DNA of 64,000 bases from positions 1 through 64,000 of the forward strand of contig JAEOTR010000084.1 in the NCBI GenBank assembly GCA_016839705.1. The letters are read 5' to 3'. Shown here piece after piece: positions 53,271-63,259 of the stretch (positions are counted from its first letter, which is position 1; every line of letters starts with the position of its first letter). Made by a program: the position numbers and the translations under genes. The stretch comes from Promethearchaeota archaeon (lineage in GTDB: Archaea; Asgardarchaeota; Lokiarchaeia; Sigyniarchaeales; SOKP01). Below the pieces are notes generated by a model that saw only the letters and a list, made by a program, of their open reading frames with translations, was not told the DNA's origin and did no database searches.

Positions 53271-53882
53271 GTGTTTAATATCTTTAAACTTTTTACAATT
53301 GAAGGAAAAATTGAGATACCACCATTTCTTTTTGACCAGGAAAAGAGTGTAAGTGCCAGAATAATCTTAAGTGAAGATTATGAAGGCATTATCACAAGAG
53401 ACTTTGGATTTATTATTGCTGTTGTTGATGTTATAAATGTTGGAATGGGAATAATTATTCCAGGGAATGCTAATACGTTCCATGAGGTTGAATTTACGAT
53501 CCTTACATTTAAACCAATTGTTTCAGAAGTAGTTGAAGGAACTGTAGTTGAAATTGTGGATTTTGGCTCTTTCATTCGTTTAGGTCCTTTGGACGGTTTG
53601 GTTCATGTATCTCAAATTTGTGATGATTATATTTCTTACGAACAAGTAGGGAATAGATTTATCGGTAAGGAAACTGGAAAGATCCTTGAAGTAAATGATC
53701 AAGTAAGAGCAAAAATTATTGCAGTCTCTTTAGGAACAGGAAGAAGTGGAAAGCTTGGATTGACGATGCGTCAGAGGTATTTGGGAAAGGAAGAATGGAT
53801 TGAAAATGATCTCGAGGAAGATATTACTAACCAACAAACCGATCAAACAAAAGTTGATGAAGAAGAAAGTGCAACTGAATGA
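53271..53882 (+). CDS. rpoE1: RNA polymerase subunit E' (Rpo7)
   Basis: IEIPP, EVVEGTVVEIVDFGSFIRLGPLDGLVHVSQI, LTMRQRYLGK. True start may be ATC 53280. Confidence 0.96.
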   Translation: MFNIFKLFTIEGKIEIPPFLFDQEKSVSARIILSEDYEGIITRDFGFIIAVVDVINVGMGIIIPGNANTFHEVEFTILTFKPIVSEVVEGTVVEIVDFGSFIRLGPLDGLVHVSQICDDYISYEQVGNRFIGKETGKILEVNDQVRAKIIAVSLGTGRSGKLGLTMRQRYLGKEEWIENDLEEDITNQQTDQTKVDEEESATE

Positions 53883-58658: not shown

Positions 58659-58901
58659 TTATCTTCTTGTTCGAATTTTTCTTGCTTCCCGTTCTACTTC
58701 TCTTAAAATTACAACATCATTCATTTTAATAGGCCCCTTGACATTACGAGTTAAGATTCGATTTTTATCTGGTCCATCTAAGATCCGAACCTTAATTTGT
58801 GTTATTTCTCCTGTAAGACCAGTTCGACCAATTATTTGAATAACCTGAGCTGGTGTAGACTGATCTTTAACTGAAACCTTAGATTTATCTAATTTTACTA
58901 T
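58659..58901 (-). CDS. rps28e: 30S ribosomal protein S28e, putative ATA start, 80 aa
   Basis: [61 protein letters not shown]; GGTGA 6 nt before ATA. Missed by the ORF track. Confidence 0.96.
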
Positions 58902-58920: not shown

Positions 58921-59292
58921 CTATTTTTTTATTTCTTCCAAATTCTTAATTACATCATTTAAAATACCATCATTTCCGGTTCCAACGTTTTCTATAGCTA
59001 TAGCACTTGCTGATACATTAATTCTAGCAGTATTACCAAGCTCTTTCTTTGTTGTTAAATAACCATAAGGAATACCTTTTTCTTCGCACAATAATGGTAT
59101 GTGGAATAATATCTCTGGGGGACTAACATCTTCAGCCATGATAACGATTTTAGCTTGTACTCTTTCGATTGATTTAGTAACTTCATTCATCCCTTTTCGT
59201 AATTTAGAATCTCTAGTCTCTGCGATTTTACTTAAGGCATTCTTAAGCTGATTTTTTAATTTATCCGGAATTTTAAATTTAATATATGAAAT
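58921..59292 (-). CDS. rpl7ae: 50S ribosomal protein L7Ae, putative ATT start, 123 aa
   Basis: (M)SYIKFKIPDKL...KLRKGMNEVTKSIER...AEDVSPPEI...LCEEKGIPY; GGAGATGA upstream. Confidence 0.96.
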   Translation of the reverse strand: MSYIKFKIPDKLKNQLKNALSKIAETRDSKLRKGMNEVTKSIERVQAKIVIMAEDVSPPEILFHIPLLCEEKGIPYGYLTTKKELGNTARINVSASAIAIENVGTGNDGILNDVIKNLEEIKK

Positions 59293-59702
59293 ATTTAATC
59301 ATCTCCTTCAAATATACATTAATATATTTTCATAAATCATCGATATTCGATACACTTTTTAATACAAGATTAAAGATAAAATTTGTCATTTGGGACAAAA
59401 AGCCTAAAAATTTTTCTTTATATACTCTTGAGGGATTAAGTGATAAACATTCCAAATAATTGTGAATTTATCATGAAAGTTAGTCTGAAAAAATTAAAAG
59501 GATTAAAAAAAATTAATAATTTATTTGCACTTATAATTTGGCTAGGGTTATTAACAGAAGCAATTATCTGTATGTGGATTTGAGAAATGGAAAAACTTAT
59601 TTTTAATGAATTACTTGATAACATACATTTAGAATAATTCTAATTTTATTATCAAATCTATTAAATACATAAAGCAAATTAACCCAAAGGAGGAGATGTA
59701 TC

Positions 59703-59903
59703 ATAATTATACCGATCCGCTGCTTTTCATGCGGAAAATTAATAGCTCATATTTACGAGCCTTATTTGGAGCTTTTGGAGAAAGGTGAATCATCCGAAAA
59801 AGCCTTTAAAGAATTAGGGATTGAAAGGTTCTGTTGTAAAAGAATGGTGGTTAGCCACGTGGATTTAATAGATGAGTTACTTAAATTTCCACGCTTGCAA
59901 TAA
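59703..59903 (+). CDS. rpoN: RNA polymerase subunit N (Rpo10), ATA start, 66 aa
   Basis: (M)IIPIRCFSCGK...LGIERFCCKRMVVSHVDLID; GGAGGAG upstream. Missed by the ORF track. Confidence 0.96.
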   Translation: MIIPIRCFSCGKLIAHIYEPYLELLEKGESSEKAFKELGIERFCCKRMVVSHVDLIDELLKFPRLQ

Positions 59904-60156: not shown

Positions 60157-60561
60157 TTATTCTTTTTCTTTCTTAAAGAGTTCGGCTTCTCCGTATTTCA
60201 TAACCTTTAAATTGATTAAAGTCATATCAGATGTGACTTCATTGCCTCGTACTGTTTTTCTCCTCTTTTCCCCTTGCCTTCTTGGTTTGTATCCAATACC
60301 ACGTTTGGAAACAAGAATTTTCTTTTTCACAGGCCCATGAACATCTTTTCTCATTGGAAAGCCACTTGAATCACTTCCACCTGTAATTTCAAACTCATAG
60401 TTAGGAAATCCGATTAAACCTCCCTTAATGATCTCGCCCATTTTCATACCTTCAAATCGAAATTTTTTTTCATCGATCTCAATAAGTTTAGTCATTCCTT
60501 TTCCAGAGCCTTCCTTTCCACCACTAATATTTAGCTTGTAAACAATTTTTTCCGAAGACAC
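60157..60561 (-). CDS. rps6e: 30S ribosomal protein S6e
   Basis: ITGGSDSSGFPM, GEKRRKTVRGN. Confidence 0.96.
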   Translation of the reverse strand: MSSEKIVYKLNISGGKEGSGKGMTKLIEIDEKKFRFEGMKMGEIIKGGLIGFPNYEFEITGGSDSSGFPMRKDVHGPVKKKILVSKRGIGYKPRRQGEKRRKTVRGNEVTSDMTLINLKVMKYGEAELFKKEKE

Positions 60562-62897: not shown

Positions 62898-62956
62898 AAA
62901 TTTCTAAAAATAAAAACAAGAGGTGCATTGAGGTTCCTAGTGAGTTTACTAAAAAT

Positions 62957-63259
62957 GTGATCAATATTATTCAAAAAATCCCAAAAGGAAAAGTTCTAAC
63001 CTATGGTTTTATAGCTAGATTAGCAGGAAATCCAAGAGCTGCGCGGCAAGTTTCATGGATTTTACACTCGTCTAGCAAGAAATATCACTTACCCTGGCAC
63101 CGTGTTATAAGCTCAAATGGGTCATTATCAATGAAATCAATTGAAGATAGACAATATCACAAAAAACTTCTGGAATTAGAAGATATCACGTTTTTAGATA
63201 ATTTTAAAATAAATCTAGAGAAATATCTTTGGAAACCCAAGATGGGTGAATTGGTTTAA
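62957..63259 (+). CDS. alkyltransferase-like protein (ATL, MGMT family)
   Basis: IPKGKVLTYG, AARQV, PWHRV (Trp in place of the catalytic Cys). The frame is open upstream to about 62933. Confidence 0.9.
   Translation: MINIIQKIPKGKVLTYGFIARLAGNPRAARQVSWILHSSSKKYHLPWHRVISSNGSLSMKSIEDRQYHKKLLELEDITFLDNFKINLEKYLWKPKMGELV

Follow-up and report, generated by a model that had tools for sequence, protein, structure and literature searches.

A probable AUA start codon behind a strong Shine–Dalgarno site in rpoN, within a Lokiarchaeia lineage with recurrent near-cognate starts

The window analysed here, a stretch of 64,000 nucleotides of contig JAEOTR010000084.1 from a Promethearchaeota archaeon of the Lokiarchaeia, carries at 59703–59903 on the forward strand the 66-codon rpoN (rpo10) gene for archaeal RNA polymerase subunit N. 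Its product scores 92.1 bits against the archaeal Rpo10 profile NF003089 (cut-off 79) and 96.5 bits against PF01194, matches Rpb10/Rpo10 chains of the PDB and, in the alignment, keeps its zinc ligands, an N-terminal CxxC and a C-terminal CC, intact; the NF003089 match rules out sigma-54 as the meaning of the gene name. The letters given in the initial annotation are those present: from 59703 the gene reads ATA ATT ATA CCG ATC CGC TGC, and its stop codon ends at 59903. The opening ATA (59703–59705, +) aligns with the ATG of 39 orthologues, and codon 2 pairs with residue 2 of the solved chains, bearing out the proposal that ATA stands exactly at the conserved initiator-methionine position and is probably the start codon. 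The frame is closed by an in-frame stop 11 codons upstream, and back to that stop no in-frame ATG, GTG or TTG precedes the ATA. Downstream, the first canonical codons are TTG at codons 22 and 25 and ATG at codon 48, the earliest of which already falls beyond the CxxC motif, so the stated lack of a nearby canonical alternative holds. A profile search with PF01194 found rpoN in a single copy, with no second gene, ATG-started or otherwise, in the assembly, which is 93% complete and 6.8% contaminated.

The GGAGGAG reported ahead of the gene lies at 59689–59695, inside a Shine–Dalgarno (SD) site (59688–59697, +) that matches the 3′ tail of the genome's own 16S rRNA, taken from contig C76, at 9 of 10 positions, with a duplex energy of −12.9 kcal/mol. 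The first G of this site stands 14 nt before the ATA, the same spacing as in a P. abyssi model mRNA (PMC6237735). The ATG at 59696–59698 is indeed out of frame, as first described; it opens a 30-codon frame (59696–59788, +) from within the SD, and we judge it non-functional because only 7 nt separate it from the SD's first G and because an ATG at the equivalent place occurs in only 6 of the 32 near-cognate orthologues. Further upstream, a putative promoter motif of the BRE/TATA type (59590–59607, +), which is the best-conserved part of the upstream region in leadered orthologues, places the predicted transcript start near 59625. The putative 5′ leader (59625–59687, +) is AT-rich and weakly structured, with no notable fold (z-score −0.86) and no ATG, and it is missing from ATG-start sister genomes. 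A scan for sigma-70 promoters, a model unsuited to archaea, stayed at chance level.

The same upstream region contains a second promoter-like motif near 59406 (+), which resembles that of relatives with the short form of rpoN. Downstream of it lies an ATG frame of 36 codons (59473–59583, +), hydrophobic in its C-terminal half, for which the 73 related loci gave no match. The stretch 59400–59583 is missing from the related metagenome contig L359, whose similarity to the window starts just 5′ of the motif at 59590–59607, and it looks like a recent insertion. The gene 5′ of rpoN varies widely among close relatives (L061–L133), being a divergent L7Ae, L24e or unrelated frames of 280–780 codons, and the site therefore seems prone to insertion and rearrangement.

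An alignment of Lokiarchaeia rpoN starts, a check that the initial annotation had proposed, reveals near-cognate codons at the initiator position in many of 73 orthologues: ATG occurs 39 times, ATA 14, ATT 12, ATC 3 and TTG twice, with GTC, GTT and TTC once each, the last three differing from AUG at two bases. This set was retrieved partly by a pattern with Ile at position 1; a Pfam-based sample gives a similar non-NTG share, namely 8 of 17 in the genus against none of 11 in the order's other families, whose rpoN genes had ATG or TTG there. The middle base of the initiator codon is T in 73/73 orthologues, compared with 35/73 at codon −1 and 24/73 at codon −2, and its conservation therefore goes beyond chance. 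Codon 3 of the window's gene, also ATA, aligns with a conserved Ile, and the start position of orthologues is also filled by ATT and ATC, points that were considered for rpoN only with regard to a recoding of AUA as Met. The reading of the rpoN ATA thus stands, but not the view of it as a single case, as it belongs to a lineage-wide pattern in which a leader and a strong SD accompany near-cognate starts.

Start codon, SD and leader change together. All 32 non-NTG starts have an SD duplex of −7.8 kcal/mol or stronger, whereas 38 of the 39 ATG starts lack a strong SD. That no ATG is found among the strong-SD rpoN genes, with 1 of the 39 reaching −5 kcal/mol or stronger, leans towards selected tuning over tolerated drift. 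A promoter-like motif lies 34–37 nt before the ATG in 33 of the 39 ATG genes and in 0 of the 32 non-NTG genes; this is a leaderless distance, and the 33 genes are probably transcribed without a leader. In the leadered genes that were aligned, a like motif sits approximately 90–130 nt upstream of the start, and what distinguishes sister genomes is a stretch of some 55–100 nt, comprising leader and SD, that lies between the start and a shared promoter-like motif. Six sister pairs contrast in this state. A concatenated tree spanning 72 taxa has 18 changes between ATG and non-ATG, 19 in the SD state and 22 in the two combined, with 20–28 changes under shuffled labels and 14 on the short rpoN tree; because recombination may transfer the upstream block and kin are not independent, the 18 changes are not a count of independent mutations. 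These comparisons indicate that rpoN flips repeatedly between a short ATG form and a long form with a strong SD and ATA, ATT or ATC. The sister pairs represent a natural experiment, in which near-identical coding sequences and promoter-like motifs are combined with two initiation modes.

Ten relatives (L104, L124–L132) carry an insert of 30–31 nt after rpoN codon 50, which the copy in the window lacks. The insert can adopt a bulge-helix-bulge shape, with 6–7 of 7 pairs in the exon stem, 3–4 of 4 in the central helix and 3–4 of 4 in the intron stem, and its excision at the bulges would restore the frame and the conserved C terminus in 10/10 cases. We regard it as a candidate intron of the tRNA type, here within a protein-coding gene that is essential.

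The initial annotation had singled out rpoN as the cleanest case of its type in the window, yet two others within 1.3 kb are equally clean. In L7Ae (58921–59292, −), the initiator position is ATT and follows a strong SD (duplex −12.2 kcal/mol); a stop lies 3 codons upstream, the first canonical codon is codon 35, and the orthologues start with ATT (32), ATG (24) or ATA (5). S28e (58659–58901, −) has ATA, again with a stop 3 codons upstream and with the first canonical codon at 60; its orthologues start mostly with TTG (34), ATG (11) and GTG (6). Elsewhere in the window, rpoE′ (Rpo7; 53280–53882, +) has ATC at the initiator position and a profile match from residue 1, with a GTG three codons upstream that sits inside the SD (orthologues: ATG 14, ATT 14, ATC 3, TTG 2), and a methylated-DNA methyltransferase-like gene of the MGMT family (62933–63259, +) has GTT behind an SD of −9.5 kcal/mol, its first canonical codon being GTG at codon 9 (orthologues: ATT 18, ATC 9, ATG 4, GTT 2). 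The S6e gene (60157–60561, −) has a GTG start and a weak SD, and its orthologues use GTG (37) and ATG (28).

When 12 genes are pooled, ATG accounts for 38 of 140 strong-SD starts versus 263 of 355 weak-SD starts, and 69 of the 81 non-canonical codons behind a strong SD follow its first G by exactly 14 nt, with ATG starts ranging from 11 to 18 nt. Genome-wide, at 13–15 nt from a strong SD, ATA occurs 27 times against 9.6 expected and ATT 23 times against 11.7 expected; there is no excess of TTH, GTH or CTH in these positions. The near-cognate excess amounts to 32 among 2663 long ORFs (1.2%), compared with an excess of 159 for canonical codons, and a looser count gives 49 of 2448 (2%); both rates are lower bounds, as they cover only long ORFs with a strong SD. 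A pairwise census against the genomes G022 and G006 was kept out of these rates, being contaminated by antisense frames, conserved leaders and genes interrupted by TGA or TAG. Near-cognate codons would on these counts start at least 1–2% of the genome's genes. A TATA-like profile upstream of ATG genes gave no clear peak genome-wide, and leaderless status is therefore proposed for the rpoN orthologues only.

The initiation machinery of this genome appears standard. The initiator tRNA gene (C76:9715–9842) has the anticodon CAU and the three G–C pairs; it also contains a 49-nt intron adjoining the anticodon, and ARAGORN mis-calls the gene as tRNA-Ser. The aIF1 gene is present and full length, its product scoring 94.6 bits against a solved archaeal aIF1 and keeping the basic loop; the genes for aIF2 beta and gamma were found, as were two aIF1A-like genes (C97:32668–32874 and C38:3142–3348), each starting with ATG and bearing a basic extension at the N terminus. 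We thus rejected relaxed fidelity through lost or damaged factors, since the initiator tRNA and all of these factors are present and none is visibly altered, with room for subtle changes. The aIF1 gene itself starts with ATT in 21/21 genus members read, behind a conserved upstream element in all 21 (for example, L044:1789–1791 (−); contig C76 in this genome) and with an in-frame stop 2–4 codons upstream; in other families TTG, ATG or GTG is found near that position. As archaeal aIF1 destabilizes non-AUG complexes (PMC6237735), its own ATT start makes a feedback loop on near-cognate starts plausible, by analogy with E. coli infC, which is likewise a start-codon fidelity factor gene that starts with ATT.

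We propose, with a probability of roughly 87%, that rpoN is initiated at its AUA by the normal initiator tRNA through SD-positioned near-cognate initiation. The rpoN mRNA would begin with a leader of some 80 nt that has the strong SD at its 3′ end, and pairing of this SD with the 16S tail would fix the small subunit with AUA in the P site; the ordinary initiator tRNA (CAU) would then pair with two of the three bases of AUA, and Rpo10 would begin with Met, as M-I-I-P. A leaderless form would need AUG, having no SD anchor, and the SD form would tolerate or even prefer a weaker codon. Indeed, GUG and UUG are known to be compensated by an SD, and leaderless mRNAs to require AUG (PMC5622118). In E. 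coli reporters, AUA, AUU and AUC give approximately 0.1–3% of the output of AUG (10.1101/063800), and the yield therefore looks low for a stoichiometric polymerase subunit; in vitro, AUA reportedly performs like AUG in an optimized context (PMC5499595). The proposal draws on sequence, namely on the codon, the SD, their spacing, the single copy, the purifying selection, the way codon and SD go together across orthologues and the standard initiator tRNA, aIF1, aIF1A and aIF2 beta and gamma; from these we infer the transcript start and the act of initiation at AUA.

The sequence alone does not fix the exact start codon, as codons 2 and 3 of rpoN are near-cognate too, and initiation at codon 2 (ATT, 17 nt from the SD) or at codon 3, giving M-I-P with codon 1 as a spacer, has to be weighed. 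ATG starts are known up to 17–18 nt from an SD, in the solved Rpo10 chain 1ef4 it is residue 1 that pairs with residue 2 of the query, and such a start would account for the GTC, GTT and TTC orthologues without two mismatches. It is nonetheless unlikely, given that the middle T is invariant at codon 1 and not at codons −1 and −2, that non-canonical starts cluster at 14 nt from the SD, and that L7Ae, S28e and MGMT follow the same pattern, L7Ae and MGMT without a near-cognate codon 2. We deem it very unlikely that the transcript is recoded, be it by editing of AUA to AUG, by an upstream AUG that is spliced in or by a frameshift from the out-of-frame ATG at 59696. That ATG lies 7 nt upstream of the ATA, and the bulge-helix-bulge inserts within the rpoN genes of relatives make mRNA splicing plausible in the lineage; however, no single editing chemistry turns ATA, ATT, ATC, GTC, GTT and TTC into ATG, an ATG in the SD is confined to the 6 of 32 near-cognate cases mentioned above, and the predicted leader has neither another ATG nor notable structure.

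Least probable, to the point of being negligible, is an assembly error or a dead rpoN copy whose working counterpart is absent from the assembly. The completeness and contamination values of the assembly leave some space for it, but the same SD and the same ATA recur in the independent contig L359, whose rpoN coding part differs at many synonymous sites, 32 of the 73 orthologues are non-NTG, and no second copy is present in the assembly. Furthermore, median pN and pS are 0.115 and 0.82 for the 32 non-NTG orthologues and 0.105 and 0.82 for the 39 ATG orthologues, which indicates purifying selection on rpoN that is equal in near-cognate- and ATG-start copies. This selection and the ATA shared with L359 also ruled out a pseudogene.

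Starting from SD-positioned initiation at AUA, a wider generalization is conceivable, which we put forward tentatively and rather doubt: that in this Lokiarchaeia family SD position outweighs codon identity, any N-U-N codon (including GUU, GUC and UUC) 14 nt behind a strong SD initiating enough for essential genes; that an infC-like loop through the AUU of aIF1 tunes this tolerance; and that genes switch between leaderless-AUG and SD-near-cognate modes to set or regulate expression. Near-cognate starts that are frequent in core genes, that of aIF1 included, offer a testable handle on the evolution of fidelity control.

In other Asgard families, ATA or ATT occupies the rpoN initiator position in 7 of 36 cases, 3 of them without a canonical alternative. 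Outside Asgard, with three centre genomes left out, the counts are 2/29 in Nanoarchaeia, 1/29 in Thermoproteota and 0/27 in Thermoplasmatota, and in each of these non-Asgard cases the SD contains a GTG three codons upstream of that position. The trait thus turns up sporadically across archaea and is frequent within this Lokiarchaeia family. The M-I-I-P start, in which ATH codons adjoin the initiator, may predispose rpoN to it.

ATT, ATC, ATA and CTG are alternative initiators in NCBI translation table 11, and the codons are thus formally allowed. AUU starts, compensation by the SD and one Asgard ATT start were already known; our analysis shows in addition that start codon, SD and leader of a single essential gene are tightly linked and that this gene switches repeatedly, and it extends the comparison to other archaea. 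Near-cognate A-U-H starts like those described here are used by infC and pcnB in E. coli (10.1101/063800) and reportedly by ebpA of Enterococcus with ATT (PMC4447247). In E. coli, however, there are two confirmed exceptions, compared with at least 1–2% of genes here, polymerase subunits and ribosomal proteins among them, and unlike in the AUU-initiated bacterial genes the codon varies among orthologues (ATA, ATT, ATC, rarely GTH or TTC). Belinky, Rogozin and Koonin (2017) likewise found stronger SDs with non-AUG starts and a need for AUG in leaderless mRNAs, but for GUG and UUG, as a weak trend and with 1 AUG-to-AUU switch in 61,358 (PMC5622118), whereas the coupling in rpoN is near-absolute, involves ATH codons and has the whole leader gained or lost. 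The start of atubA, an Asgard gene from a Kariarchaeaceae (Heimdallarchaeia) genome, was moved to an ATT on the grounds of homology and its distance from the SD, the record in the database being truncated; this concerned one gene, was called rare and came with no lineage-wide analysis (PMC13394414). Ribosome profiling in Haloferax treated near-cognate sites as putative alternatives, set aside as possible false positives, and not as the main starts of essential genes (PMC7261190). Our literature search, confined mostly to papers outside subscription, found no report of systematic ATH starts in Lokiarchaeia.

Current annotation accepts some near-cognate rpoN starts and mis-calls others: the record UCC21334.1 is a full 66-aa Rpo10 with a Met start, and other Rpo10 records are wrongly cut or extended, at 62, 73 and 78 aa. 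Gene callers thus cut, extend or miss genes of this kind. SD sites have been reported as rare in Lokiarchaea (PMC7531240, PMC12993045), an impression to which mis-called starts may contribute, in part only, since a strong SD precedes only a minority of canonical starts too in this genome.

Some genes of this genome are interrupted in frame. A tRNA-SeC gene was called on contig C18, and on contigs C5 and C81 conserved frames continue straight after an in-frame TGA, both here and in a relative; by resemblance these may be HdrA-like selenoproteins. Three further conserved frames, on contigs C1, C17 and C73, have an in-frame TAG and continue straight behind it, again both here and in a relative; the ribosome may read through the TAG, an intron may remove it, or translation may start at a near-cognate CTG.
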